NCBI GenBank assembly: GCA_018701215.1
Contig: JABIWH010000018.1
Coordinates: forward strand, 14,861-78,860
From: Rhodospirillaceae bacterium
GTDB taxonomy: Bacteria; Pseudomonadota; Alphaproteobacteria; GCA-2731375
Reading direction: 5' to 3'
Length of the DNA stretch: 64,000 nt
Below the pieces are notes generated by a model. That model did not search any database, had not been told where the DNA came from, and saw only the letters and a program-made list of their open reading frames with translations. Each line of letters opens with the position of its first letter. Position 1 is the first letter of the stretch. Made by a program: the position numbers and the translations under genes. Shown one piece after another: positions 12,500 through 55,587 of this stretch.

Positions 12500-13258
12500 T
12501 TAACCGTCTGGCCGTAGAATATGACGATGATCAGCGGCATAAAGGCGGCTGTCGGTAGCCTTGTCCGTATCCAGAACCCGGCCAACCAGGACCAGGGCAG
12601 TGCGGGTCAACTTGGCGGCGCGGGTTTTCTCGCGAATGTCGGCCAGGGTACCACGAATAATCTCCTGATCGGGCCAGCTGGCGCGGTAGACCAGGGCGAC
12701 GGGGCAGTCTTCGCCATAGTGGGGGATCAGATCACGGCAAACCTGGCGCAGGTTCCGGGCCGAGAGATGAATAGCCAGGGTCGCGCCGGAGCGCCCCAAG
12801 CTGGCTAGCTCCTCCCCCGCCGGCATGGCGGAGCTTTTCATCGCCGTGCGGGTTAGAATGATGGTCTGGCTGATATCCGGCAGGGTCAGCTCCAACCCCA
12901 GGGCCGCCGCCGAGGCCGCGAAGGCCGGCACCCCGGGGGTGATGGTGTAATCTATGTCCAACGCCTTCAAGCGTTTGATCTGCTCGCCAATGGCGCCATA
13001 CAGCGACGGATCGCCGGAATGCACCCGGGCGATATCCTGGCCTCTTCCGTGGGCGGCTTCAATCTCCGCCATGATCTCATCCAGATTCAGGGACGCGGTA
13101 TCGATTACCCGGGCATCACTTGGCGCAAATGCGACGACTTCCGCCGGCACCAGGGATCCGGCATAGAGGCAAACCGGGCAGGCGGCGATCTGGTCGCGGC
13201 CGCGCAGGGTAATCAGGTCCGGCGCGCCGGGCCCCGCGCCAATGAAATGCACGGTCAT
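12500..13258 (-). CDS. cobM: Precorrin-4 C11-methyltransferase
   Basis: Tetrapyrrole methylase fold starting [18 protein letters not shown]. CobM/CbiF-like length (252 aa). Sits inside the cob operon. Confidence 0.85.
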
Positions 13259-15075
13259 GCTTGGTTATCCTTAATCAGAGGGGTTTGCTTGGCGGCATAG
13301 CCGCGCGGGGTATAGACCGACCAGCTGCCGTCGCCGCGCTGCCGCGCCCGGGTCTCGGACGAGCCGATCATCACCAGGGTCAGCATATCCACGTCGTCCA
13401 CCTGCAGATCAACCAGAGGCAGCGCGATCACCTGCTCCTCGGCCCGGCCCAGATTGCGGGCCAAGATCACCGGGGTATCCTCGGGCCGGTGGCGCAGCAA
13501 CAGATCCCGCGCTAGCGCCAACAGATCGCGGCGCCGTTTGCTGACCGGATTATAAAAGGCGATGACGAAATCAGAGGCGGCGGCGGCCACGACGCGGCGC
13601 AGGATTACCTCGCGCGGGGTCAAGAGATCCGAAAGCGAGATGGCGCAGAAATCGTGCCCCAGGGGGGCGCCCACCCGCAAAGCGGCGGCCTGCATGGCCG
13701 AAATACCCGGCAGCAGTTCCAGCGATATACGGTCCCAATGATCGGGCGCCTCGTCGCGGTCCAGCAATTCATGGGCCAGGGCGCCCATGGCAAAAACCCC
13801 GGCATCGCCCGAAGAAACCAGCGCCACGTTCCGGCCCGATGCCGCCATATCGATGGCGGCGGCCACCCGCGCCTCTTCCTCGCCCAGCTGGTAAGCGCGG
13901 CAGTCCTTGTCCGCGATCAGATCGGCAATCAGCTCCAGGTACAGGCCATAACCGACGATGATATCCGCCTGCCGCAGGGCGGCCTCCGCCGCGCCGGTGC
14001 GCCAATCGGCCCGGCCCGGCCCGATACCGACGATAGCCAGATGCCCCCGCGCCGTGCCCAACGTCGTCGGATCAATAATCTTATCCGCGCGGGCGATGGC
14101 GCAGGTCGCGCGTTGGCTCTTGCGTTTCTCCACAATCAGCTCATCACCTGCCGCAAGGGCCGCCGCTTCCGCCACGCCACTGACGCCAACCTCCCGCTTC
14201 ACCACTTCGGAGGGGTTGGCGAGGCGGGATTCCTGGGCCTGAAGCGCCGCAAGATCAAAGAAGCGCGCCGGAATATCGAAATGCGCGGCGGCGGCATGAA
14301 TAGCCGCCTCGTCGGTCTTTAGATCCAGCGAGAAGATACCGGCCAGGGATAGGGCCGGAAGATTTTTCAGCCTCAGGGTTTCGCTGATCAGCCCGATCAA
14401 TTCCTCCCGTTCCACGCCCCGTTCACAACCGAGGCCAAGCGCCAAGGTCTGGCGATGGTAAACCAAATGACCCTTGTCGCCGGCCAGCGCAACATCCGAA
14501 ACGGTGATGCGCAGGGCGCCGTCCTCGGCCTGCGGCAGAGCGCTGGCGCGCAACCAATCCGCCCCGTCACCGCCCTTGATCATCACCGCAGCGCCGGCGC
14601 GCAACTCGGCGACGAAGGCCTTCATGTCGGCGGGATTAGCCAGACGCCAGCCCTGCGGCGGTTCGTCCAGGGCAATGGCGAACGCGGTATCACTGGCCGT
14701 GGTGATGGCTGGCAAGATGTCGAGAATTTCCCCGATGTGCCGGGCCAGATCATTGCCGCCGTGGTGGCCGCCCAACAAAGGCACCACGGCGCTGCCATCC
14801 TCGGCCAGGGCCAGCACCGGGGCATCGTCATGTTTGTTGCCCAGGCTTGGCGCCAGATGACGGATGACGATGCCAGCCGCGCACAGGGCGATCAACGGCT
14901 CGCCAGTGGCGAAACAATCCCGCAAGGCAGCCGCCACATCATCAAAGGGCCGGACGTCGGCCGCTTGTACGCGCTTGCCATAGCCGTGGATAACGCCGCC
15001 AAGCTCGGCTTGCAAACGCCGCGCGGTGGCCAGACCCGTCTCGCCCAAAACCAGATAATTTAATGAATAATTCAC
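13255..15075 (-). CDS. cobJ: CbiG-like (cobalt-precorrin-5A hydrolase-like) N-terminal domains fused to precorrin-3B C17-methyltransferase (CobJ/CbiH)
   Basis: 606 aa. The N-terminal ~330 aa are CbiG-like. The C-terminal ~250 aa are a TP-methylase domain ([17 protein letters not shown]...). Overlaps cobM and cobI by 4 nt. Confidence 0.8.
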
Positions 15076-26688: not shown

Positions 26689-26759
26689 TGCTGCCGCGCT
26701 TGTGAATATGGGGAGGAATTCATGGTGTAGCGCCCTCCCTCCGAGGATCGGTTACATAG

Positions 26760-26970
26760 GTTACAACGAGCCGCGCGCGTCTCCTGGCTTTGGGTCATCG
26801 GTCGCGGGGCCTTCCCGGCGGACACGCCGCCAGTGACAGTTTCCCGTTTCCTCGCCATTCACAGTTGCGGGGGCAGCGCCGGATTTTAGAGACCTTGCAG
26901 CCTTTCGGGACAAGGATGGAACACCGGCTTCCGCGCCACGGCGAGCGCAATCTAGCACGCATGGTATCTT
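26760..26970 (-). ncRNA. Cobalamin (adenosylcobalamin) riboswitch in the 5' leader of cobW-cobN-cobO-cobQ
   Basis: Read on the minus strand: ...GAAGCCGGTGTTCCATCC...GCTGCCCCCGCAACTGTGAA...GTCACTGGCGGCGTGTCCGCCGGGAAGGCCCC...AAGCCAGGAGACGCGCGCGGC. The conserved CACUG / GGGAAGGC elements and a B12-box-like AGCCAGGAGAC(G)CGC (plus-strand coordinates 26767-26789) are present. It lies in a 380-bp leader upstream of cobW. Confidence 0.6.
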
Positions 26971-27067
26971 GGCGGCAATCGGCTAAAGGAATTGCCGCTG
27001 GCAAAACTTGGTGCGCCAGCGTAAAGCTAGATATTGTTCAGGTGCGCGTATTTTTTTGGATTTTCCG

Positions 27068-34624: not shown

Positions 34625-35044
34625 TTAGATCCCCTTGTCGAGCAGAGCTTTGATCTTCGGCTTGCTGGTTTGCGCCACCAGACGGCCCACTTCCCCGCTC
34701 TCCCTTATCATGACCAGGGTGGACTGATAGGGCACCTTGTATTGCTTGGCGATGGGCGCATCCCGGTAGGTGTCCCAGTCCACATAGATGAAGGTAATCT
34801 TCTCATCATAGGTTTTGTTGGCGCTTCGTAATGCCTTGATCGCACGGATCTGGCTGCGGCAGGTGCCTCACCAAGGGGCCGCGAATTCCAACAGCACCGC
34901 GCGGCCATCGGCCAGGGCGGATTTCACGGTCTCGGGACTGTAGGGGGCGGTGTCGCTGTCCGCCTGTGCCGCCGATGGCGCCGCCAATGGCGCCAACAGG
35001 GCCGTGACGATGGCGGCCTGCAGAAAAAGTCTACGTAGCATCAT
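34625..35044 (-). CDS. Periplasmic thioredoxin-like protein with in-frame TGA at the first redox-Cys position (candidate selenoprotein, W-U-G-T-C)
   Basis: Minus-strand ORF with an AAGGAA RBS and an ATGATG start. Product: MMLRRLFLQAAIVTALLAPLAAPSAAQA (signal peptide) ...AVLLEFAAPW-[TGA at 34868-34870]-GTCRSQIRAIKALRSANKTYDEKITFIYVDWDTYRDAPIAKQYKVPYQSTLVMIRESGEVG...KGI*. The same frame is open on both sides of the TGA, and the TGA replaces the first Cys of a WCxxC thioredoxin motif. Absent from the ORF track because of the internal stop. Confidence 0.5.
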
Positions 35045-35101
35045 CAAAATTCCTTGTTACCAACATCATACCAGCGCCAATCCAGCTGCAAACCCAGGGG
35101 C

Positions 35102-35839
35102 TCAAACCGAAACGGAGAGATCCTGCAGCCATGCCGGCAGGATATCAAGCAGCTGGTTTTCCAGCCAGTGATCTACCCCAAACAGAATGCCCATGCCCAC
35201 TAACAAGAACGTGATGCCCAGGATCGGCTTGGCCTTGCCGGCCAGCAATCTGAGCGCCCGTTGCCGTTTCACCACCACTTCCCGGGTGCCGAACGCCAGG
35301 GCCAGCACGATGGTGGAAACTCCCAACGCGAAGGCGGTCATGATGGCGCCGGACCAGATTACGTCCTGGCCTTGCGAGGCCAGGGATATGGCCCCGCCCA
35401 GGGTGGGGCCGATACAGGGCGACCAGACCGCCCCCAGCATGGCGCCGCCCAGGAACTGTCAGCGCAGCCCAGTATCGGTGCCGGTGCTATCGCCGCTGCT
35501 CCCCATGGCGTGCAGGCGGGCATCAGCGGTGGCGGCGAACCCGGCGGTGGCGGTGGCAAAGCGCTCGTTCAGGCGCGGGATCAACAACACCAGGCCAAAG
35601 CCGATCATCATCCAGGCGCCGATTTTGGTCATCAATCGCTGGTCAAGGCCGATGGACGATCCCAGCACGATGACGAACAGCCCGACCAGGACGAAAGACA
35701 GGCTCAACCCCGCCGCCAGTGCCAACGGGCCCCGGCGGTCGGCCTGTAACGAGGCCGCCAGGACAATGGGCAGCACCGGCAAGACGCACGGGTTCAAAAG
35801 GGTCAACAACCCGGCGATAAAAGCAAAAAACAATTCCAC
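35102..35839 (-). CDS. ccdA: CcdA/DsbD-family thiol-disulfide transporter (cytochrome c biogenesis protein CcdA) interrupted by a single in-frame TGA
   Basis: The N-part (35459..35839, MELFFAFIAGLLTLLNPCVLPVL...) and C-part (35102..35440, ...AVWSPCIGPTLGGA...) lie in the same frame. They are separated only by TGA at 35459-35461 (...GTDTGLR-TGA-QFLGGAMLGAVWSPC). Both conserved CcdA cysteines (NPC and SPC) are present. Either selenocysteine/readthrough or a nonsense pseudogene. Confidence 0.5.
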
Positions 35840-35982
35840 GAGCGAACCACTCCATGTCCCTGCGGGTCAACTTATCGAGGCTCGATATCACGGCTATTGC
35901 CCAGGCGACAACATGGCGCCGGTCACGATAGCGTGTCCCATCAACGTTGCGCCAAGGCCGGCGGGACGACTACAATCCCGCC

Positions 35983-36588
35983 ATGTCCTCAGCAAACCGT
36001 CAACTCGCCGCCATTGTGATCGCCCACACGGTCGGCGCCCACGAACGTAGCGGCGAACTGTTGCAGGACATCTTCAGGCCGTACCTGAAGCAGTACAACG
36101 GCCGCCTGCTCAAAGCCGGGGACGATCGTCTCGTGCTGGCCTTCACCTCCGCCGTGGCGGCGGTGAATTTCGCGCTTGATGTCCAGCGGACCCTGCCGAT
36201 CCACCAAAGCGACTGGCCCCAGGGCCAGCGCCTGCGCTTTCGCCTTGGCATAAATCTGGGCGATATCGTCGTCGACGGTGATGCTGTCCACGGCGACGGT
36301 GTCGACGTGGCAGCCGGCCTCGGCGCCCTGGTGGAACCGGGCGGCATCCTGATCGCGGGCAATGTCCTCAACCAGGTGCGCCGCCGCCTCGATCATGTGG
36401 CGTTCGAGGATATGGGGCCGCAAAACGTGGCCAATGGGCCCGGCCCGGTGTCCAGCTACCGGGTGCTGCTTGATCCCCCCGCCGTTGCCGCGGCGGGCGG
36501 CGGCGGCAGGCTCTTGACCGGGCGGCAGCTCGCCCTGGCTCTGCTGGTCCTGATACTTTTTTCCGGCATGGTGTATTGGAAGCTATAG
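35983..36588 (+). CDS. Adenylate/guanylate cyclase (class III CHD) domain protein with C-terminal membrane anchor, possibly catalytically degenerate
   Basis: CHD-like LKAGDDRLVLAF and GINLGDIVVDGDAVHGDGVDVAAGLGALVEPGGILIAGNV. The first metal-binding Asp position reads AHTVG instead of F.D.xGFT. C-terminal hydrophobic LALALLVLILFSGMVYW. Confidence 0.5.
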   Translation: MSSANRQLAAIVIAHTVGAHERSGELLQDIFRPYLKQYNGRLLKAGDDRLVLAFTSAVAAVNFALDVQRTLPIHQSDWPQGQRLRFRLGINLGDIVVDGDAVHGDGVDVAAGLGALVEPGGILIAGNVLNQVRRRLDHVAFEDMGPQNVANGPGPVSSYRVLLDPPAVAAAGGGGRLLTGRQLALALLVLILFSGMVYWKL

Positions 36589-37495: not shown

Positions 37496-37761
37496 GGCCC
37501 CTTGCCGCCTGGTATTAATCTATGGGCGCGCCGTGACAGGGTGGCCGGGCATATTAGCCCGGCTTATTGTCGGATCGCCGCCTGTTGGCCCTGGATGCCC
37601 GGATCAAGTCCGGGCATGACATTTTAGCGGAATTCAGCCAAAGCCTTTCCCACTTCGTCATTGCCGGGCTTGACCCGGCAATCCAGGGCAACCAAATCAA
37701 ATGCTTGCAGCCCTGGCTCACCCGGGGCTCCCGGGGGTCTCCGCGTCATTCCGCCCAAGTG

Positions 37762-39057
37762 TTAAAAGGGTAGCGTCCCCTTTGATTCCCTTGTGTCTAC
37801 ACCAACAACGTATTCAGTTTCCCAGTCAGGAAACGACCCCCGTTTGATCAAGGTTCGTGCAACGCTTGCGCATAAGTTGGCTGCGTCTTCCAACAAATCC
37901 TTAGGGGGCGGCCCATTATACTTCTTACCCATTTTGAGTTCACCGGTATGCACGGCTTTGGATCTCAAATCATAGGCAACTCTAAGAAGCTTGAAGGTTT
38001 TCATTCGATCCTGTTGGCTGCCGCCCAGGAATGTTGCGCCTCGGATTGATGCCCGGTATGTCATTTCCGTACGTTCTCTAATGCCGTGAAGCAGCATTAC
38101 TTCCAACGAAATTCCAAGATCGATCGCCCGGTCCACAATTTCTTCCCTACCCAGCGCCAGGTTAAGTCGGTCCAAGCCAATTCGCATTACGTTTATTTCC
38201 GCAGGAGAAAATTCTCCGAAGTCATGAAAAAATCTAGTGATAAGTTCCCCATCTAACGCTCTCGGATTCCGAGTTGCCAAATGAGCGGAAACATCGGACA
38301 GAGCTGGTCCTTTGGAATAAGACCGAGCAAAGCAAAGGGTTGCGACCTGTTGTTCGAATTGCGCCCAATGTCCAAGCGCCACCACATGGCTTTCATTCAA
38401 GGCCGCGACACACCGCACCATGTCGTCAACCAATAGTTTGTTTTGTTTGCTGCTCTCGGTTGGAGGAAGTCTTCCCGCTGCCTCGGCTTGTTTGAATGAT
38501 GGAAATAATACCTGGTTTGACGCCGTGCGAAATCGCAATGCGAGGTCGCCCTTTGGCTGCATGGATCTATGCGGAACTTCATCAAATACTGCCTTCTGAT
38601 ATCCATCTGGAACGTCTCCCCAAGGCAGGAGGTCAACGTCACCTCTTAGACTGACGGCTTTGTCCAGTGTGGCTCCGGCCAAAGGTGTGTAAATTTCGGT
38701 TGCGCACGCCGGAGCGGCCGCAAATGCCCGCGCTTCCTCAACGAGCTTCTTGGCGGATTGGCCGTCCATCACGCAATTAATTAGTTGATAAGGAAACGCG
38801 CGGGACTGCACCTGATGGCCGCCACCAAACGCGTCTTGAATCCATCCGTTGCGAATATCTCCAAAAGACGGGTCCTTACTAAAGGCGGCTAATAACTGGG
38901 CCGCGCCACTTTGCTCTACCTCGAATGCTCGCAAAATTACCTCACTCCCAAAATGGCTGCGTGCACTCTCCATATGAAGCAAAGTCTCTTGCGCCTCACT
39001 AGCGGCCTGTTCCGCGAGGCTCACAATATCCATTTCATTTTGCACACCCTTTGCCAT
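37762..39057 (-). CDS. HEPN-superfamily protein (Rx4H motif) with an unrelated ~330-aa N-terminal region; candidate stand-alone defence/toxin (Abi/ApeA-like) gene in a low-GC islet
   Basis: 431-aa ORF at ~50% GC against ~65% in its flanks. The C-terminal region contains LRSKAVHTG (R-x4-H HEPN catalytic motif) inside a predicted helical segment. It is flanked by 360-bp and 230-bp non-coding regions carrying several hairpins. No close family recognised from sequence alone. Confidence 0.45.
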   Translation of the reverse strand: MAKGVQNEMDIVSLAEQAASEAQETLLHMESARSHFGSEVILRAFEVEQSGAAQLLAAFSKDPSFGDIRNGWIQDAFGGGHQVQSRAFPYQLINCVMDGQSAKKLVEEARAFAAAPACATEIYTPLAGATLDKAVSLRGDVDLLPWGDVPDGYQKAVFDEVPHRSMQPKGDLALRFRTASNQVLFPSFKQAEAAGRLPPTESSKQNKLLVDDMVRCVAALNESHVVALGHWAQFEQQVATLCFARSYSKGPALSDVSAHLATRNPRALDGELITRFFHDFGEFSPAEINVMRIGLDRLNLALGREEIVDRAIDLGISLEVMLLHGIRERTEMTYRASIRGATFLGGSQQDRMKTFKLLRVAYDLRSKAVHTGELKMGKKYNGPPPKDLLEDAANLCASVARTLIKRGSFPDWETEYVVGVDTRESKGTLPF

Positions 39058-39290
39058 CTCCAGAATCTATCAGAGAATGGCGCCGCAATCACGCGTCGCA
39101 TTCGGTTGGTCACTTGCACCTACCGCCACTCAGACATATATTTGAGGCCGCGGTGGAGACCCGGCGGGCCGGCCAACCATCCAATCCATCGCACCAGCTC
39201 AGACCCGGTCGTCCAGGTTTTTCTTTGCCCGATCAGATCCAAGTCAATCTTTCCGATCAACGGGGTCAAAGTAAATTGATTTGGCCGCGC

Positions 39291-40625
39291 TCAATCGGTC
39301 ACTGGAAAAAACTGGTTCTCCGGCCGGGGCAGACCGAGGTTTTCCCTCAATGTCATTCCCTCGTATTTACGGCGAAACAGGCCGCGGCGTTGTAGTTCCG
39401 GTACCACTTGGTCGACGAAATCGTCCAGGCCGGCGGGCAGGTAGGGGAACATGACGTTGAAGCCGTCGCAGGCGTCGGTTAGCAGCCATTCCTGCATTTG
39501 ATCGGCGATCATCGATGGCGTGCCGACCATGGCCAGGCCGGAATAGCCGCCCAGGCGTCCGGCCAGTTGCCGTACGGTCAGGTTTTCCCGTTCGGCCAGG
39601 GCCAACACCCGTTCGCGGCCGCTTTTCGAGGCATTGCTCTCCGGGATCGCAGGCAAAGGTCCGTCCGGATCAAAGCCGGAGGCATCATGGCCCAGGGCGA
39701 TGGACAGGGAGGCAATGGCGCTGTCGTAATGCACCAGGCTATCGAGCAAGGCGCGTTTTTCCTTGGCCTCGGCCGCCGTCTCGCCGACCACGACAAAGGC
39801 GCCGGGCAGGATTTTTAGATGCGCCCGCGCCCGGCCCAGCTGGTCCATGCGGCCCTTGACGTCGGCATAGAACGCCTGGCCGTCCGCCAGATTGGGCTGG
39901 GCGGCAAAAATAACCTCCGCCGTTTCCGCCGCCAGCTGCCGGCCCGCGTCCGAGGCGCCGGCCTGCACGATCACCGGCCAGCCCTGGGGCGGCCGGGCAA
40001 TGTTCAGCGGCCCGCGCACGGATAGAAATTCGCCATTGTGGTCCAGTACATGCAGTTTGTCGGGATCAAAAAATACGCCGCTGTCCACATCGCGGATGAA
40101 GGCGTCATCGGCCCAGCTGTCCCACAGCCCGGTGACCACATCGACGAATTCCCGGGCCCGGCGGTAACGCTCGCCATGCTCCATATGATCCTGCATGCCG
40201 AAATTCAGCGCCGCATCCGGATTGGAGGTCGTGACCAGGTTCCAGGCGGCCCGGCCGCCGCTGATATGATCCAGGGAGGCAAAGCGCCGGGCAATGGTAT
40301 AGGCCGGCTCGAACGTGGTTGAAGCCGTCGCGATCAGGCCCAGGTGTTCCGTCACCATGGCCAGCGCGGGCAACAGGGTCAGGGGATCGAATGAAGTTGA
40401 AGTCGCGCTGCGTTTCAACGCCTCCATGGGCATGTTCAGCACGGCCAGATGATCGGCCATGAAAAAGGCGTCGAATTTGCCCTGCTCCAGCTTTTGGGCA
40501 TAGCCCGTTAGGGCCTTAAGGTCGAAGTTGGCGTTCGGCGTACCGCCGGGATAACGCCAAGCGGCGGTGTGGATGGAGGCCGGGCGCATGAAGGCGCCCA
40601 GGCGTAGTTGTCTTTCTGATGTCAT
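39291..40625 (-). CDS. LLM-class flavin-dependent monooxygenase (NtaA/SnaA/DszA/SsuD-like)
   Basis: 444 aa. Luciferase-like monooxygenase sequence (LGAFMRPASIHTAAWRYP..., FFMADHL, insertion region typical of NtaA/DszA group). Confidence 0.8.
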   Translation of the reverse strand: MTSERQLRLGAFMRPASIHTAAWRYPGGTPNANFDLKALTGYAQKLEQGKFDAFFMADHLAVLNMPMEALKRSATSTSFDPLTLLPALAMVTEHLGLIATASTTFEPAYTIARRFASLDHISGGRAAWNLVTTSNPDAALNFGMQDHMEHGERYRRAREFVDVVTGLWDSWADDAFIRDVDSGVFFDPDKLHVLDHNGEFLSVRGPLNIARPPQGWPVIVQAGASDAGRQLAAETAEVIFAAQPNLADGQAFYADVKGRMDQLGRARAHLKILPGAFVVVGETAAEAKEKRALLDSLVHYDSAIASLSIALGHDASGFDPDGPLPAIPESNASKSGRERVLALAERENLTVRQLAGRLGGYSGLAMVGTPSMIADQMQEWLLTDACDGFNVMFPYLPAGLDDFVDQVVPELQRRGLFRRKYEGMTLRENLGLPRPENQFFPVTD

Positions 40626-42768: not shown

Positions 42769-43962
42769 TTAACGCACGCGGTACTCATCGGGTAAGAACA
42801 TCAGGCTGTCCTGTTCCTCGGCAACCGCCATGTGGCATTCGTAGCAGAAGTCCATCTTGGCCGAACCGGCGCCGTTGGTGGTGCCGAATACCTGGCCGTT
42901 GGGCAGCACCATGGTGTAACGCCAGTTGCCGGACACCTTTTTGAAACCAGCCGGCATTTTCTCCATCAGGAACAACGGTCCCGCCGCCAGCTTGCCGTTC
43001 GCCTTGGCAACGAAGCTGTCCTTGGCCAGGATGGCGCCAACGGGCATGCGGCCCGCCGCTTCATACTTGCCGTAGTTGCCGGCGGTGGTGTTGCCGTAGT
43101 TGTTGACGTAGCGGCCGCCATGGGTGTCCGAGACATAGGGTTGCGAGGAATAGTTCTTCCAGTCCTTGTAGTGGCCGGCCACGGTCAGGCCGGATTTGCC
43201 ATAGCCGGCGACAAGATCCTTGACCAGGCAGTCATAGGCCTTGCGTGCCTCGCCCGCCGTCAACTCGGCCACGGCGCCGGCGCCACAGGGATTACACGGG
43301 TTGCAGGGATTGCACGGGCCGCAGCCCTTCTTGGCGGCGCAGGGGTTGCACGGGCTGCAAGCTTTCTTGGCGGCACATGGATTACAGGCGCCGCAGTTTT
43401 TCTTTTTCGCCGCGCAGGGATTACACAATGCCGCCTTGACCAGTCGCGGGATGGCGCATTTTAGCGAGGCCGAGGCAGCGCCCGCACCGCATGGGTTACA
43501 GGGATTACAGGCACCACAGCCTTTTTTCGCGGCGCAGGGGTTGCACGGATTACAGGCTTTCTTGGCAGCGCAGGGATTACAGGCGCCACAGCCTTTTTTC
43601 GCCGCACATGGATTACAGGCACCGCAACCTTTCTTCTTGGCACCGCAAGGGTTGCACGCACCGCAGCCGCGTTTCTTGCTGGCGCACGGGTTGCACGAGG
43701 CGGCTACCTGCATTGGGCTCTGCTGTCTTGGCGCGGCAGGCGCGTTAGGCTGCTGGCCACTAGCCGCGGCTCCCCTGGCGACAGCCGCCGGATTGAGGCC
43801 ATGACTGGCGCCGGACGCCGGTATAGCGGCTCTGGCAAAGGCGACATCGGCCAACGGGATCGCCGCCCCGGCCGTCAAGGCCGCCCCCATAACCACATGC
43901 AACACGGATGATTTGATGATTTTGCTTTTTGTTGATCGCACGATCCAGCCTCCAGCATTCAT
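42769..43962 (-). CDS. Secreted cytochrome P460-family protein (C-terminal CxxCH) with N-terminal Cys-rich C-N-P-C tandem-repeat module
   Basis: Signal peptide (KIIKSSVLHVVMGAALTAGAAIPLADVAFA). About 17 C[NS]PC motifs in 9-12-aa repeats (CNPCAAKKGCGA...), arranged as two blocks each ending CNPCNPCGAGA. C-terminal ~170 aa (..QPYVSDTHGGRYVNNYGN...LFLMEKMP...GNWRYTMVLPNG...MDFCYECHMAV..FLPDEY) follow the cytochrome P460 / c-prime-beta pattern with heme-binding CYECH near the C-terminus. Start chosen at MNAGGW (43962); the ORF extends to 44025. Confidence 0.55.
   Translation of the reverse strand: MNAGGWIVRSTKSKIIKSSVLHVVMGAALTAGAAIPLADVAFARAAIPASGASHGLNPAAVARGAAASGQQPNAPAAPRQQSPMQVAASCNPCASKKRGCGACNPCGAKKKGCGACNPCAAKKGCGACNPCAAKKACNPCNPCAAKKGCGACNPCNPCGAGAASASLKCAIPRLVKAALCNPCAAKKKNCGACNPCAAKKACSPCNPCAAKKGCGPCNPCNPCNPCGAGAVAELTAGEARKAYDCLVKDLVAGYGKSGLTVAGHYKDWKNYSSQPYVSDTHGGRYVNNYGNTTAGNYGKYEAAGRMPVGAILAKDSFVAKANGKLAAGPLFLMEKMPAGFKKVSGNWRYTMVLPNGQVFGTTNGAGSAKMDFCYECHMAVAEEQDSLMFLPDEYRVR
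43255..43700. repeat. Coding tandem repeat (27/36-bp period, higher-order ~220-bp duplication) encoding the CNPC module
   Basis: Recurrent GGATTACA(C/G)GG(G/C)..GCAGCC..TTTCTT(G)GC units are visible in the sequence. They are coding, not a CRISPR array. Confidence 0.7.
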
Positions 43963-44087
43963 TTGATTGTTCCCCAATTTTGCGTGCCCTAAATCTGCAC
44001 CCGCCGCGCGGTGGAAACGAGTCACATCAACTCAAACTTCCGTGAGCGGGTCTGGGAATTTGGTGATGTCGTCTGTAATTTCACAGC

Positions 44088-47841: not shown

Positions 47842-48780
47842 TCAGACTACCAGGTGCCGTCCTGTGCCGTTCGTGTCTCGCAGCCAGGCTTGCTTACCGC
47901 CGCCTCGGCGCAACAGTTCCGCCGCCCTTTCGGGGGGCGATAGATACAGCGCCGTGGACAGGGCGTCGGCGGCGGCCGCGGTGCGGGCCAGGACGGAGAC
48001 GGCGGCATAGTGCCGGGCGCTGCGGCCGGTAACCGGATGCAGCAGATGATGCGGGCCTTCCCCTGCCGCGAAAGGACTGCCCGCGCCGGCGGAGGTGGCG
48101 ACGGCGGCATTCGTAAGATCCAAGGTCGCAACCCTACCCGGCAGCGCGACCGACCAGGGGCGTCCTGGTAGGGCGCGGATCTCGCCCAGGTTCAACAATA
48201 CGTCCGACCAACCCCTGGCGCGGAGCAGATCAGCGACCCGGTCGGTGATATAGCCTTGCGCGATACCGTTCAGAGTCAGGGCCATGCCGGGTTCAAGGTG
48301 GATAGCTTCGGCGCCGATGGCAATGCGCCGGTAGTCGATATGCTGCTGTACCGCCCTGATGGCATCGGGCGAAGGCCCGGCAAGATCGTCGGGATGGTTG
48401 ACGAAATGTTCGGCGTATAGTTGCCACAACGGCTGTATCGAGGGATCGAAGGCGCCCTGGCTCAGATCGCAGTACTGCCGGCAAAGCTGTAACAGGCGGC
48501 GCATGTCGTGGGATGGCGCCGTCAATTGTCCGGCTGCGTTCAATCTATTCAGTGCGGAGCCGGCACGATATAGGCTGAACTCGTTCTCCAAACGGGAAAT
48601 TTCACCCAGGCAGGCCTTGATCGCGGCTTCGGCGGCGGCTTTATCGGGATGATACAGCACGATTTTCGCCTCGGCACCCAAGGCGCCGCCTTGCCATTCA
48701 AAGCGCCGCGGCTGGGCCGCCGCGGCACCAGGCAACAGCGTGGCGGTAGCCGCGATGGCGATAAAGCGGCGCCGGGTCAT
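47842..48780 (-). CDS. nirX: FAD:protein FMN transferase (ApbE family), NirX/NosX-type
   Basis: Tat signal MTRRRFIAIAATATLLPGAAAA. ApbE fold. Located directly downstream of nirI, as in the Paracoccus nirIX operon. Start chosen at 48780 to avoid overlap with nirI. Confidence 0.7.
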   Translation of the reverse strand: MTRRRFIAIAATATLLPGAAAAQPRRFEWQGGALGAEAKIVLYHPDKAAAEAAIKACLGEISRLENEFSLYRAGSALNRLNAAGQLTAPSHDMRRLLQLCRQYCDLSQGAFDPSIQPLWQLYAEHFVNHPDDLAGPSPDAIRAVQQHIDYRRIAIGAEAIHLEPGMALTLNGIAQGYITDRVADLLRARGWSDVLLNLGEIRALPGRPWSVALPGRVATLDLTNAAVATSAGAGSPFAAGEGPHHLLHPVTGRSARHYAAVSVLARTAAAADALSTALYLSPPERAAELLRRGGGKQAWLRDTNGTGRHLVV

Positions 48781-48815
48781 ATTGGGGCTCATGGTGGGGA
48801 CAGCACCCGTACGCA

Positions 48816-51026
48816 TCAGCTTGCCCTTTCCACGTATGCGGCCTGCTTGGCGGCCCGTTCTTCCTGACGCTTGCGCCGGGACACCAACGGCGGACATTTC
48901 CCATTGTCATAGAAATTTGCCTGACAGGCCAGGCAATGAATGCATTCATTGGGATTGATGGAGCCATCGGGATGGATCGCCTGCACGGTACAGTTCACGG
49001 CGCAGAGGCGGCACTCGCGGCCGCACTGAAAGCGCCGCTTCAACCACTCGAACATGCGCAGCCGCGCCGGAATGGCCAATGCCGCGCCCAGGGGACACAG
49101 ATAACGGCAGAAAAACCGCTCTATGAACAGGCCCAGGAACAACAGCCCGCCGACATAGGCCACGAATGGCCAATGGCGCACGAAGTGCATGGAGATCGCG
49201 GTCTTGAACGGCTCCACTTCCGAGCCGGCGATGGCCATGATCGTTGAATGCAGCGAGACCGCGAACAGGCCGAGAAAAATGATGTGCTTGATCGGCCAGA
49301 GGCGTTCGTGCAGCGCGAACGGCACGGTGATTTGCGGAATGCGTAACAGCCGCGCCCCTTCGTTCAGCAATTCCTGTAGGGCGCCAAAGGGGCACAGCCA
49401 GCCGCAGAACACCCCTCGGCCCCAGAACAACAGGGTCACGGCGACATAGCCCCAAAGAATGAAAATCAACGGATCAAGCAGGAAGAATTCCCAGCGGAAA
49501 CCGCTCAAAAGGGATTGCACGAAAGTCAGCACATTTATCACCGACAACTGCGCGCCCGCGTACCAGCCGATCCAGACCAGGGTCACCGTCAAATAGACCA
49601 GCCGGACCGAACGATAGAGCCGCTGCCGCTGTACCAAATTATCCTGAAAAACCAGTATCGCGCTTAGGATCGCCAACAAACCCAACAGCGTCGCGATCCG
49701 GCCCACCCGGTCGCGCCAGTTGCGCAGCCACAGGGCGGGTTCCCCCTGGGTCAGCTGTTGCTGCAAATAAAACAGTACCCGGTCCATCTGATTGTCCGTC
49801 TGCGCCGCCGTTTTTACGTCGCCGCCAAGGCGGTAGCGTGCGGGTAATACATAGGACAACGGAAAATCCAGGTGCACCAGGCCGCCCTGTTTGGTTTCCC
49901 GGCTGACCAGTAGTTCCAGGCGCCATTCGGCCAGGGGATTGAAACCGGTATCGGCGGGCAGGACAAAAACCCCGGTCTCGCGCAGCGACGGCGCGGTGGC
50001 GATTTTCACGGACTCAACAAAATGATAATGCTTTTTCACTAGGCGAATAATCTTGTCGCCCTGCACGATCTGAATGCGGTCGAACAGGCCGGAACGGCGA
50101 TACCGCGTCCCCTTGTAGGAATAGATCCCGTTGCCGGCGATGAATATGGCCTGATCCTTTGGGCTCATGTCCCGCAAAAGGCGATTGAAGGCCTGCGGGC
50201 CCAACAGATTCTGGCCAACCCGGGGCGGCGTAATCAGGGCCGTGTAGAGTTCGGAATACAGCTCCTCGGGCGCTTGATCGCCGGGAAATTCCGCACCCGG
50301 AATGGCGACCCTGTCGCGGTAGGCCTGTTCGATATTACCGTGATTAAGGATCAGGTGGGCAATGGAGCCATCGGCGCGCAGTTCCTGCCAATCAGCGGGT
50401 TCATAAGTCTCGCGGTCAAGGCGAACCTTGGCCTGCACCGCCGCCAGCAAACCGCGGCTACGCGCCACGGTTCGGGCCGCCCGGACCACCGAGTCAGCGA
50501 TCACCGAGCTGGAAATGGTGGCGCCCGAAATCGCATCAGGTAGCGCGCCGAGGCGGTTGGCGACTTGGCGCACTTGCCCTGGTTGGTGGATATCGACACC
50601 GGCAAAACCCGCGACAAAATCCCGCAATGCCTGATCAGGAATGCCGATTACCAGAATTGGTTCATTGTGGCTGCGCAACAGCGCGCCGGTGATCAGGCCC
50701 TTATTGGTAATGCCCACCATGATATCGATAGGCTTACCGGAAAACCCAACCGATCCGACAACATCCTGAGTTGAAAAAATATAACCAATGCGGGCGCCGC
50801 CCTTGAAGACCGAGGCCGCCAGAGGCTTGCCAGCCAGGGAACCGGCCCGATCGGCGCCGGGAAACACCTGGGCCAGGGTTTCGGGACCAATGCGCTCACC
50901 CTGCTTGGCCCAGCTGGGCCCGGCAAACAAGATCAGAGGCGATATCAGAGCCAATATCAGAGCCAAATGCAGCGCTCGTGCGTCAATCGTGGAGCGCGCC
51001 TTGCTGAATATCATGCTGAATATCAT
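48816..51026 (-). CDS. nirI: NosR/NirI-family membrane-bound FMN-binding iron-sulfur regulator of nitrite reductase expression
   Basis: 736 aa. Periplasmic FMN-binding domain, 6 TM helices, two C-terminal ferredoxin-type cysteine clusters (CGWLCPFGALQE, CRYLCPLGA, CGRECRLCAVNC, CIHCLACQ). Divergent from nirS. Confidence 0.85.
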   Translation of the reverse strand: MIFSMIFSKARSTIDARALHLALILALISPLILFAGPSWAKQGERIGPETLAQVFPGADRAGSLAGKPLAASVFKGGARIGYIFSTQDVVGSVGFSGKPIDIMVGITNKGLITGALLRSHNEPILVIGIPDQALRDFVAGFAGVDIHQPGQVRQVANRLGALPDAISGATISSSVIADSVVRAARTVARSRGLLAAVQAKVRLDRETYEPADWQELRADGSIAHLILNHGNIEQAYRDRVAIPGAEFPGDQAPEELYSELYTALITPPRVGQNLLGPQAFNRLLRDMSPKDQAIFIAGNGIYSYKGTRYRRSGLFDRIQIVQGDKIIRLVKKHYHFVESVKIATAPSLRETGVFVLPADTGFNPLAEWRLELLVSRETKQGGLVHLDFPLSYVLPARYRLGGDVKTAAQTDNQMDRVLFYLQQQLTQGEPALWLRNWRDRVGRIATLLGLLAILSAILVFQDNLVQRQRLYRSVRLVYLTVTLVWIGWYAGAQLSVINVLTFVQSLLSGFRWEFFLLDPLIFILWGYVAVTLLFWGRGVFCGWLCPFGALQELLNEGARLLRIPQITVPFALHERLWPIKHIIFLGLFAVSLHSTIMAIAGSEVEPFKTAISMHFVRHWPFVAYVGGLLFLGLFIERFFCRYLCPLGAALAIPARLRMFEWLKRRFQCGRECRLCAVNCTVQAIHPDGSINPNECIHCLACQANFYDNGKCPPLVSRRKRQEERAAKQAAYVERAS

Positions 51027-51171
51027 GCGATACAGGGCCTAGTCTTGCAGCGGCATGGTTGGGCCATGGTCAACCCCATGGCCGTCCCTGCCGTGATGCC
51101 TTTCCGACATGGAGAACCCCGCTCACTCAATTTCGCACCATAAAGGATGCCGGCATTTTTCTTACCCGAAA

Positions 51172-51185
51172 ATGACCACGGTCAA
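51172..51185. promoter_or_regulatory. NNR/FNR-type box (ATGAC-CACG-GTCAA) in the nirI-nirS divergent promoter region
   Basis: 13/14 match to TTGAC-N4-GTCAA, centred ~67 bp upstream of the nirS ATG. Confidence 0.45.
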
Positions 51186-51212
51186 GGATTGTTAACTTCG
51201 TATCGCTAATGA

Positions 51213-52997
<1,785 letters not shown>

Positions 52998-53023
52998 GAC
53001 GGACGTCTAATCCAATGTGGCGT

Positions 53024-53051
53024 GGGATCGAAAAGTTAACCTTTTCGATCC
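53024..53051 (+). terminator. Perfect hairpin GGGATCGAAAAG-TTAA-CTTTTCGATCCC after nirS (terminator/attenuator-like, no U-tract)
   Basis: 12-bp perfect inverted repeat 27 bp after the nirS stop and before nirE. Confidence 0.4.
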
Positions 53052-53119
53052 CGCCGTCCGCTACAATCTATGTAGTCGAATTTTACCTAGACGACGCGTG
53101 ACCGCGGGGGACGCTCTAG

Positions 53120-53923
53120 ATGACCAAAGCGAGTACAGTATTTCTTGTCGGCGCCGGGCCAGGGGATCCGGAGTTGTTGACGATGAAGGCGCACCGATTG
53201 CTGCAGGCCGCCGAGGTGGTGGTTTATGACCGGTTGGTTTCGGCCGAAATTCTGGCCCTGATCCCGGCGGGCGCGACCCTGATCAGCGTTGGCAAACAGC
53301 CGCATAACCATCCCATTCCGCAGCCCGAGATCAACCAGTTGCTGGTCCGCCTGGCCAGGGCCGGCCGCAATGTCGTCCGCCTGAAGGGCGGTGACCCTTA
53401 TGTTTTTGGCCGCGGTTCGGAAGAAGCCATAACCTTGGTCGAAAATAACGTGCCATTCGAAGTCGTACCGGGCATTACCTCGGCCTCGGCCTGCTCGGCC
53501 TCCGTCGGCATGCCCTTGACCCATCGCGGCCTGGCCACCGGCGTTCGTTATTTGACCGGCCATTGCCGGGAAGACAGCGAGCTGGATTTTGACTGGCAGG
53601 GCCTGGCCGATCCATCGACCACCCTGGTGATCTATATGGGCATGGCCAATGTGGAACAAATCACCGAGAACTTGATCAAACACGGCGCCGACCCGAAATT
53701 GCCCGCCGCCGCCATCAACAATGGCAGCACGCCGGCGCAACGGCACGTCGTATCCAGCTTGGAAAAACTGGCCGGCGATGCCAAGGCCGCTGAATTCAAT
53801 GGACCGGTATTGTTCGTCGTCGGTCAAGTCGTGGCCCTGCATGCCATCCTGGGCGTGCAAGTGGATGCCAATCAAGATCAGGCTCAAGACGATGAACAGC
53901 CGAATTCCGCCGTGGGCAGCTAG
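53120..53923 (+). CDS. nirE: Uroporphyrinogen-III C-methyltransferase (SUMT) of the heme-d1 pathway
   Basis: TP methylase starting VFLVGAGPGDPELLTMKA. CobA/CysG-C-like, 267 aa. First gene after nirS. Confidence 0.9.
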   Translation: MTKASTVFLVGAGPGDPELLTMKAHRLLQAAEVVVYDRLVSAEILALIPAGATLISVGKQPHNHPIPQPEINQLLVRLARAGRNVVRLKGGDPYVFGRGSEEAITLVENNVPFEVVPGITSASACSASVGMPLTHRGLATGVRYLTGHCREDSELDFDWQGLADPSTTLVIYMGMANVEQITENLIKHGADPKLPAAAINNGSTPAQRHVVSSLEKLAGDAKAAEFNGPVLFVVGQVVALHAILGVQVDANQDQAQDDEQPNSAVGS

Positions 53924-53987
53924 AGCAATTCCGATCCAATGTGGATCGCCCAAGAGCCCTGAGCGATTCTAAGTGCCAAGATTGTCG

Positions 53988-54374
53988 ATGGGAAAAATTG
54001 CTCTATTCTTAAGAATCAGAGCATTTCCTATTCGGAAATGCTTTAGGGCCTGCCTGACCGCTGCCTTGTTTGCGACGTCGATCACTCCAGTTTGCAGCGA
54101 AGAAAGTATTTCGACGGCGCGGCAGACGGAATTGCTGTATCTCTTGCAACAGGATTGCGGCTCCTGCCATGGCCTGACCCTCAAGGGCGGCCTGGGCACG
54201 CCGCTGTTGCCGGAAAATTTAGCGGACAAGCCCGATGATGCCCTGGTTGAGATAATCATGCAAGGGCTGCCGGGTACGCCCATGCCGCCCTGGCGCTTTC
54301 TGCTCAAGGAACAGGAAGCCGCGTTCCTGGTACGGGCCATGAAGACGGGCCAGACACTGAAAATCGAGCAATGA
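53988..54374 (+). CDS. nirC: Cytochrome c55X
   Basis: Signal peptide plus the single heme-c site CGSCHG, then GLPGTPMPPW. ~128 aa. Position between nirE and nirF. Confidence 0.7.
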   Translation: MGKIALFLRIRAFPIRKCFRACLTAALFATSITPVCSEESISTARQTELLYLLQQDCGSCHGLTLKGGLGTPLLPENLADKPDDALVEIIMQGLPGTPMPPWRFLLKEQEAAFLVRAMKTGQTLKIEQ

Positions 54375-54384
54375 AAGTCGAAAA

Positions 54385-55587
54385 ATGAGGTCTTTAGGGA
54401 AAATTTCCACCTTTCTGGCAACGGCCGCTCTGCTCATCTCGGCCATGGCCAACGCCCAAGCTGATGATGGTTTGAAACTGCGCGGCACCGGCGATCTGGG
54501 CCTGGTGATTGAACGCGCCCATGGCAGCATCCAAATTATTGACACGACCCAGCGCGCGGCCCTGGGCCGGGTCAAGGGCCTGGGCGATCTCAGCCATGCC
54601 TCCGCCGTCTATTCCAGGGATGGGCGCTATGCCTATATCTTTGGCCGCGACGGCGGCTTGAGCAAGGTCGATATCCTGCAACGGCGCATCGCCAAACGTG
54701 TCGTGCAATCGGGCAACAGCATCGGCGGCGCGATTTCCCAGGACGGCAGCCTGGTGGCCGTCTCCAATTACAAGCCGGGCGGGGTCAAGGTGTTTGATGC
54801 GGCGACGTTGGAATTGGTGGCCGACATTCCGGCCCAGGCCAGTGACGGCAGCGGCCTCTCCAAGGTGGTTGGCCTGGCCGATGCGCCGGGGCAACGCTTT
54901 ATCTTCTCGCTTTATAACGCCGGCGAGATTTGGATCGCTGATTTTTCAGACCGCGGCAACGTTAAGCTGACCAAATATACTGATATTGGCGAGCTGCCCT
55001 ATGACGGCCTGATCACCGATGATGGCCGCTATTACATCGCCGGCCTGTTCGGCGAGGACGGCATGGCAATGCTGGATCTGTGGCAGCCCGAAAAAGGCGT
55101 GCGCCGTATTCTGGACGGCTATGGCCGGGGCGAGGAGAAGCTGCCGGTCTACAAGATGCCCCATCTGGAAGGCTGGGCCCGGGCCGGTGACGTGATTTTT
55201 CTGCCCGCCGTGGGCCGCCATGAAGTCCTGATGGTCGCGCCCGGCAGCTGGAAAGAGGTTGGGCGCATTGCCGTCCATGGCCAGCCGATCTTTGCCGTGG
55301 CCCGGCCCGACGGCCGCCAGGTCTGGGTCAATTTCGCCCATCCGCTGAACGACACGGTGCAGGTTATCGACGTGCCCAGCCGCAAGATCGTGCACGAATT
55401 CAAGCCGGGCAAGGCAGTGCTGCATCTGGAGTTCACGCCCAGGGGCGAGCAGGTCTGGATTTCCGTGCGCGATGCCAACCGGGTCGATGTCTATGACACC
55501 GAAAGTTTCGCGCGGCTGCAAACCCTGCCGGCGCAAAAACCATCGGGAATTTTTCTCACCGCCCGGGCCAATCGGATCGGGTTATAG
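54385..55587 (+). CDS. nirF: Heme d1 biosynthesis protein NirF (cd1-like beta-propeller, dihydro-heme d1 dehydrogenase)
   Basis: Signal peptide and a 400-aa WD/propeller protein homologous to the NirS d1 domain. Confidence 0.85.
   Translation: MRSLGKISTFLATAALLISAMANAQADDGLKLRGTGDLGLVIERAHGSIQIIDTTQRAALGRVKGLGDLSHASAVYSRDGRYAYIFGRDGGLSKVDILQRRIAKRVVQSGNSIGGAISQDGSLVAVSNYKPGGVKVFDAATLELVADIPAQASDGSGLSKVVGLADAPGQRFIFSLYNAGEIWIADFSDRGNVKLTKYTDIGELPYDGLITDDGRYYIAGLFGEDGMAMLDLWQPEKGVRRILDGYGRGEEKLPVYKMPHLEGWARAGDVIFLPAVGRHEVLMVAPGSWKEVGRIAVHGQPIFAVARPDGRQVWVNFAHPLNDTVQVIDVPSRKIVHEFKPGKAVLHLEFTPRGEQVWISVRDANRVDVYDTESFARLQTLPAQKPSGIFLTARANRIGL

Follow-up and report, generated by a model that had tools for sequence, protein, structure and literature searches.

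The CcdA proteins of Rhodobacter capsulatus and Bacillus subtilis are six-transmembrane (TM) thiol-disulfide electron transporters that carry one Cys in TM1 (within an NPC motif) and one in TM4 (within an SPC motif). The same six-TM transporter, again with the NPC Cys in TM1 and the SPC Cys in TM4, is known from Thermus thermophilus (PDB 5VKV and 2N4X). CcdA has also been described in pairs with extracytoplasmic thioredoxins, such as ResA/StoA of Bacillus, Etrx of Streptococcus, and TlpA/CcmG of proteobacteria. Here, a ccdA gene was analyzed that lies within a stretch of 64,000 nucleotides of marine alphaproteobacterial DNA, the whole of which is referred to as the window. Compared to the Thermus protein, CcdA of the window is cut by a stop codon between TM3 and TM4, and it contains a lineage-specific insertion rich in Gly, Ser, and Thr in the TM3-TM4 loop. 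As in the known pairs, ccdA adjoins a gene for a thioredoxin-fold protein (trx), whose hydrophobic N-terminus resembles a signal peptide as judged by eye; unlike ResA, StoA, Etrx, TlpA, and CcmG, the partner encoded in the window and in several related alphaproteobacterial metagenome-assembled genomes (MAGs) would have selenocysteine (Sec) in place of its first Cys.

Thioredoxin-fold selenoproteins with a UxxC motif are known in the Trx and thiol:disulfide interchange families (PMC13188914). The trx gene shares with them the position of the TGA, the presence of Cys-containing orthologs, and a hairpin, whereas ccdA is unlike them in that its TGA stands in a column of Gly and no homolog has anything equivalent. 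There is no CcdA family in the published inventory of prokaryotic selenoprotein families (PMC13188914), and a literature search for CcdA selenoproteins or split CcdA proteins returned nothing relevant beyond a selenoproteome review of 2026. The only DsbD-related entry among known selenoprotein families is TsoB (NCBIfam NF045694), a rhodanese/DsbD fusion-like selenoprotein, whose architecture and Sec motif (UxxxxU) differ from those of the window genes; CcdA of the window did not match this family, and trx gave a weak partial match of 23.6 bits versus a cut-off of 805. With natural nonsense polymorphisms and young pseudogenes, ccdA has several features in common: one stop, no other damage, a sense allele that persists, and restriction to one lineage. 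It differs from them in that the stop allele is the majority form and in that two substitutions fall within one codon. The coordinates of both genes and their elements are collected in Table 1.

Table 1. Elements of ccdA and of the downstream trx gene (window coordinates).
Feature	Position	Strand	Remarks
ccdA (CcdA/DsbD-family membrane thiol-disulfide electron transporter)	35102..35839	minus	245 codons + stop, GTG start, one internal TGA
In-frame TGA of ccdA, codon 127	35459..35461	minus	followed by C (UGA-C); replaces an almost invariant Gly
ccdA N-terminal half, 126 aa, TM1-3	35462..35839	minus	NPC Cys18 at 35788..35786
ccdA C-terminal half, 118 codons + stop, TM4-6	35102..35458	minus	SPC Cys142 at 35416..35414
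G/S/T/D-rich TM3-TM4 loop	35468..35518	minus	directly 5' of the TGA; from alignment A1 and DNA alignment
ATG (Met134), six codons past the ccdA TGA	35438..35440	minus	putative restart codon for the C-terminal half
GC-rich hairpin past the ccdA TGA	35417..35450	minus	predicted by folding; GGGG or UCUGG loop depending on the fold
trx, thioredoxin-fold gene	34625..35047	minus	PF00085, E = 5.6e-12; W-TGA-G-T-C; downstream of ccdA
TGA of trx, first Cys position of CxxC	34868..34870	minus	conserved in 8 loci
Hairpin past the trx TGA, GCC-A-GAUC [CGUGC] GAUC-AA-GGC	34833..34854	minus	candidate bacterial SECIS

The minus-strand frame of ccdA, from the GTG at 35839 to the stop at 35104..35102, contains a single internal TGA, around which the residues and codons read ...GTDTGLR-TGA-QFLGGAMLGAVWSPCIGP. 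The joined protein of 245 residues matched the Pfam families DsbD_TM (PF02683, 49.4 bits with a cut-off of 27.1) and DsbD_2 (PF13386, 31.4 bits with a cut-off of 24.9). Hundreds of full-length CcdA proteins (237-258 aa) aligned with it over 100% of its length with E-values of 1e-118 to 1e-123, the top match having E = 3e-123 and 87% identity. Judged from these alignments, the match of the interrupted frame to the CcdA family is far beyond chance. The original prediction, made from the letters alone, had regarded two open reading frames (ORFs) here as the halves of one CcdA with both Cys motifs, lying in the same frame and split by one TGA ahead of TM4. This picture is borne out, as the joined frame aligns end to end with full-length orthologs and the homology is contiguous across the codon. 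No residue is lost at the junction, where the TGA fills exactly one column (...GLR-x-QFLGG...) of an alignment of CcdA proteins (A1). All 61 invariant columns of A1 are kept, including those of Cys18 and Cys142, and the C-terminal half has no second lesion and retains every invariant residue. A frameshift was also tried as an explanation and is ruled out, as had been proposed, because the homology enters and leaves the TGA codon in one frame; the argument first given for this, that the other two frames are closed, was wrong, since the site lies within an open minus-strand frame other than that of ccdA (ORF 35359..35559). When the window was scanned for further pairs of ORFs split by a single TGA, only the noise of spurious frames in GC-rich sequence was found besides ccdA and trx.

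The TM3-TM4 loop, which directly precedes the TGA column, is a hot-spot of length variation in the CcdA clade of the window. Close relatives differ here by 0 to +16 residues, and the inserts are rich in Gly, Ser, Thr, Gln, and Asn and partly repetitive (e.g., GQNAGQNTGQNT; examples occur in five proteins). Divergently from ccdA, a plus-strand gene of ~201 aa (35947-36588) was observed that has no Pfam match in the lineage of the window; its counterpart in a related contig (L134) matches Guanylate_cyc (PF00211), and the gene is found beside ccdA in close relatives as well. Farther on, the GC content is 0.49-0.54 at 37500-39300 versus ~0.62 in the flanks. This segment, which may have been acquired horizontally, overlaps a minus-strand ORF of 431 aa (37762-39057) without a Pfam family.

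The residue that occupies the TGA column was examined in homologs from several sources. All 29 close homologs aligned in A1 have Gly, a few distant members have Ser or Thr, and none has Cys. Among 119 loci drawn from species-representative genomes by a degenerate DNA pattern for QF-x-[GA]G-xx-LGA[VI]W[ST]PC, 116 have Gly, two Thr, and one Ala, and neither Cys nor TGA occurs (codons GGC 52, GGG 43, GGT 12, GGA 9, ACG 2, and GCG 1). The column aligns with Gly112 of Thermus CcdA (PDB 5VKV; E = 2.7e-11). The remark in the original prediction that this TGA is not at a known Cys position therefore holds. The alignment with orthologs that it had proposed as a check, naming a non-Cys sense codon as part of the outcome that would speak against Sec, returned just such a codon, for Gly. 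A scan of JGI metagenomes, in which TGA was fixed ahead of a degenerate QF-GG-LGAVWSPC pattern, gave one match; this contig reads STGTDTGLR-TGA and thus comes from the window's own population, which is under-sampled in that collection (one locus returned versus 43 JGI contigs in the protein index). In addition, a search with the 126-aa N-terminal piece gave 104 truncated relatives (105 hits), 32 of which were read, chosen for matching length or for lying on long contigs. None of the 32 stops at the TGA column; all are frameshifted or partial, and several are on short contigs or labelled 'partial' at the source.

The ccdA TGA is a real, derived Gly-to-stop allele that is confined to one nearly clonal population of marine Alphaproteobacteria, whose MAGs are labelled 'Rhodospirillaceae bacterium' in NCBI. 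The assembly collections list the exact 126-aa N-terminal product in 181 index blocks, and the TGA allele is present in ~189 contigs, including 138 from NCBI, Logan, and ENA, 43 from JGI, and eight with minor single-residue variants. Over 7.9 and 12.4 kb, two contigs, each from a different sample, share 99.96-100% identity with the window, and around the TGA they agree with it base for base. A sense allele was also found: in the same 90%-identity cluster, two proteins (P0127 and P0133) are full-length (245 aa), have Gly127, and are otherwise identical to the translation of the window. They are encoded by four contigs from four samples (L006 to L009), in which ccdA matches the window at every base except for the codon itself, GGG versus TGA. 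In ~8.5 kb of aligned flanks only two further differences from the window were observed, both in L006. Thus, TGA on ~189 contigs compares with GGG on four, in a population whose divergence is about 1 in 4,000-12,000 bases; the cluster also has a few amino-acid variants, which were left out because they come from short or error-prone contigs (one with T-to-P changes in both halves).

Because the next lineages out carry GGG (L004, L005, and L132 to L134) or GGA (L003), Gly is the ancestral state and TGA the derived one. From the comparison of the two alleles, the change from Gly to TGA is younger than any other substitution in ccdA. Given such a recent change, there has been no time for decay, and the undamaged C-terminal half is therefore uninformative on whether it is used. 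Similarly, no selection test on this half is possible, since nothing besides this codon separates the TGA allele from the GGG allele. In the GGG allele the two redox cysteines are on one uninterrupted polypeptide, whereas in the window allele the TGA lies between them. Two mosaic contigs from two samples (L010 1-1151 and L011 1-1091, covering window positions 35839-35192) were also noticed. Their 5' part is identical to the lineage of L132 and L133, which is ~12% diverged, and their 3' part, TGA included, is identical to the window, with the switch within a 29-nt stretch common to both lineages. They represent either a natural recombinant, which would place the TGA allele in a ~12% diverged lineage, or an assembly chimera.

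The two alleles have only the middle base of the codon in common, while the background is ~2.4e-4 differences per site, and the expected probability of two independent neutral changes in one codon is ~5e-4. Neither GGA nor TGG was seen as an intermediate among the contigs of the population. Since the alleles differ at two bases of one codon, one random point mutation is insufficient; the candidates are a multi-nucleotide mutation in one event, conversion over a very short tract, or two steps by way of a GGA intermediate that was not sampled. By itself the two-base difference is no argument for function, as GGG cannot reach any stop in one step. Apart from this difference and how common the stop allele is, nothing about the locus merits a further look.

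The neighbouring trx gene presents a different case. That it has a TGA at a CxxC position had been noted at the outset and was confirmed (W-TGA-GTC). The motif W-TGA-[GS]-T-C occurs in eight loci of at least four lineages (the window, L003, L004/L005/L065, L052, L072, and L128), and Cys is found at the TGA position (DWC[STG]TC) in seven of seven Cys-form genomes among those listed, which include Thalassovita and a Granulosicoccaceae MAG and have the motif at the same place downstream of ccdA. In the eight Sec-form loci and the seven Cys-form genomes listed, the W-C/U-x-x-C motif lies 0.5-0.6 kb downstream of ccdA. Past the trx TGA, the sequence CAG-[AG]TC-CGT-G[CT]G-ATC is conserved even at third codon positions. 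The predicted hairpin has a 4-bp upper stem, all four pairs of which are kept in six of six sequences (no compensatory changes were seen), and a CGUG[CU] apical loop that starts 21 nt past the TGA and has G and then U at positions 2-3. On the strength of these comparisons, trx is a credible UxxC periplasmic selenoprotein, and its product is likely to be a periplasmic client of CcdA.

With trx as a credible selenoprotein gene, Sec is very probably decoded in the organism. Within the window, no tRNA gene was detected, and none of 20 scanned window proteins matched the SelA, SelB, or SelD families. Searches of the window with Rfam and ARAGORN found neither tRNA-Sec nor a SECIS family and returned only a cobalamin riboswitch (RF00174, 88.6 bits; 26757-26979, minus strand). 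This riboswitch is located upstream of a long run of minus-strand ORFs, and two ORFs farther along that strand (12500-15075) match cobalamin and tetrapyrrole methylase families.

Taken together, the ccdA TGA is probably a genuine derived nonsense allele at a conserved Gly, either loss-of-function or leaky. According to this explanation, a Gly codon (GGG in the nearest relatives and in the minority contigs) would have been changed to TGA in one nearly clonal marine population. As UGA is the ordinary stop of the organism, translation should mostly end past residue 126, and the product would be a three-TM fragment with one of the two redox cysteines. Such a fragment should be unable to pass electrons on from thioredoxin in the cytoplasm to the periplasmic one that is encoded downstream, and CcdA function would be lost or strongly reduced in the TGA allele. 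Among the options of the original prediction was an inactivated operon; inactivation is, beside the UGA readthrough also proposed there, one of the two possibilities left standing for the ccdA allele, but it does not extend to the operon as a whole, in which trx is intact. Several observations sit less easily with a nonsense allele. That a harmful null should be the majority form is odd, unless the population is clonal or the cell can do without the gene or gains from its loss, and the change at two codon positions is more than one random point mutation can account for. Moreover, some full-length protein may still arise in the UGA-C context, the organism probably has Sec machinery as judged from trx, and an ATG with a usable Shine-Dalgarno (SD)-like sequence lies 15 nt past the stop.

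In the window, TGA is the stop codon of 21 of the 44 confident genes, ccdA included, and reassignment of UGA to Gly (table 25) or Trp (table 4) is thereby ruled out. In E. coli, UGA-C is the weakest and leakiest of the tetranucleotide termination signals. By analogy, some read-through of the ccdA stop, and hence some full-length CcdA, is plausible. It could then be supposed that a near-cognate tRNA, classically tRNA-Trp, decodes UGA-C at a rate sufficient for the little full-length CcdA that the cell requires, so that the allele is hypomorphic and not null and is tolerated for that reason, an explanation that we consider unlikely. It is favored by the context, which closes only two of the 21 genuine TGA-terminated genes in the window, by the abundance of the allele in nature, and by the undamaged C-terminal half; for the reason given above, however, the last point says nothing. 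In addition, read-through would substitute a bulky residue for a Gly whose conservation extends from Thermus to Alphaproteobacteria, a stimulatory element is not evident from downstream folding, and at this position the cluster shows Gly as the only sense variant, with no Trp.

A very unlikely possibility is that translation stops at the UGA and restarts at the downstream ATG, and that two three-TM halves with one redox Cys each assemble non-covalently into a split transporter. The cut does fall at the junction of TM1-3 and TM4-6, and the arrangement would resemble the two-fold repeat found within the CcdA/DsbD fold. The sequence upstream of the ATG is predicted to pair with the anti-SD sequence at -5.7 kcal/mol, a value that corresponds to the better half of the real starts in the window and is equalled at 9.7% of random positions. 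A restarted C-terminal half would thus be mechanically possible, although it would be devoid of QFLGGA, which includes two invariant residues (F129 and G132). Met134 and its surroundings are also present in relatives without the stop, so that nothing has evolved for a restart, and such a split was found in no other lineage among the 119 genomes and the 32 truncated relatives read.

It is still less probable that the TGA is a second Sec codon of the operon, at which SelB would use the GC-rich hairpin to insert Sec at residue 127 and could couple CcdA synthesis to selenium supply. According to the bacterial SECIS rule, a G should be present within the first two positions of an apical loop located 16-37 nt from the UGA (PMC13188914). 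Downstream of the ccdA TGA, a 72-nt fold has a GGGG apical loop that begins with G at 24 nt and satisfies this rule, whereas the minimum-energy fold of 60 nt has a UCUGG loop and violates it. The SECIS look-up suggested at the outset did find a hairpin, but one no better than background: 25% of 3,000 random window positions satisfy a simple implementation of the rule, and the folding z-scores relative to shuffled sequence are +0.50 and -0.67. The sequence 3' of the codon is identical in the GGG and TGA alleles, while synonymous sites vary in relatives, and because the GGG allele has this identical sequence, nothing downstream, such as a SECIS, has evolved together with the TGA. Both features by which a comparison of homologs would reveal Sec, i.e., a Cys/Sec pair and the presence of TGA in other lineages, are absent at this column, which is Gly and has TGA in no homolog. 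Thus, the proposal of two Sec codons in one redox operon found no support, and Sec at the ccdA TGA was rejected; the little weight that it keeps comes solely from the neighbouring trx, whose conserved CxxC-position TGA and hairpin make it very probable that the organism decodes Sec.

Finally, an artefact of sequencing or assembly in the window, for which it can be said only that single in-frame stops are common artefacts, has practically no chance of being the explanation, since the same TGA occurs in the ~189 independently assembled contigs from different projects and pipelines of NCBI, JGI, ENA, and Logan, two contigs from other samples are identical to the window here, and the other allele differs by two bases rather than one.

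The wider context gives some indication of the physiology of the organism. Denitrification-type genes are present at 47842-55587, including cytochrome cd1 genes (NirS/NirF-like) at 51246-52997 and 54385-55587, a large Fer4_5 protein (48816-51026), and ApbE (47842-48897), and a protein with a cytochrome P460 domain is encoded at 42769-44025. From the nirS-type cd1 nitrite reductase genes, it follows that the organism makes periplasmic c-type cytochromes.

It is decidedly unlikely that the stop allele is functional, either through conditional full-length CcdA made by leaky decoding or by SelB with the help of a fortuitous hairpin, or through separately made halves that assemble, and no finding here requires function. 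If it were, the allele would bear on the tolerance of the CcdA fold to a cut at the boundary of its internal repeat and on the electron supply to a Sec-dependent periplasmic thioredoxin. Assembly of the halves would make this the first DsbD/CcdA family member known to be split in nature, whereas decoding of UGA-C could yield full-length CcdA possibly in step with the selenium supply for its Sec-thioredoxin client. In either case, TGA and GGG would be kept side by side as a polymorphism by which a denitrifying marine bacterium tunes its periplasmic reducing power. As a nonsense allele, by comparison, the ccdA TGA is an ordinary kind of thing. Its value is then mainly one of caution: an in-frame TGA beside a real selenoprotein gene suggests a second Sec codon, which the comparative data reject here, and what looks like an intact 'split gene' can turn out to be a nonsense allele of very recent origin that is the dominant form in a nearly clonal environmental population.
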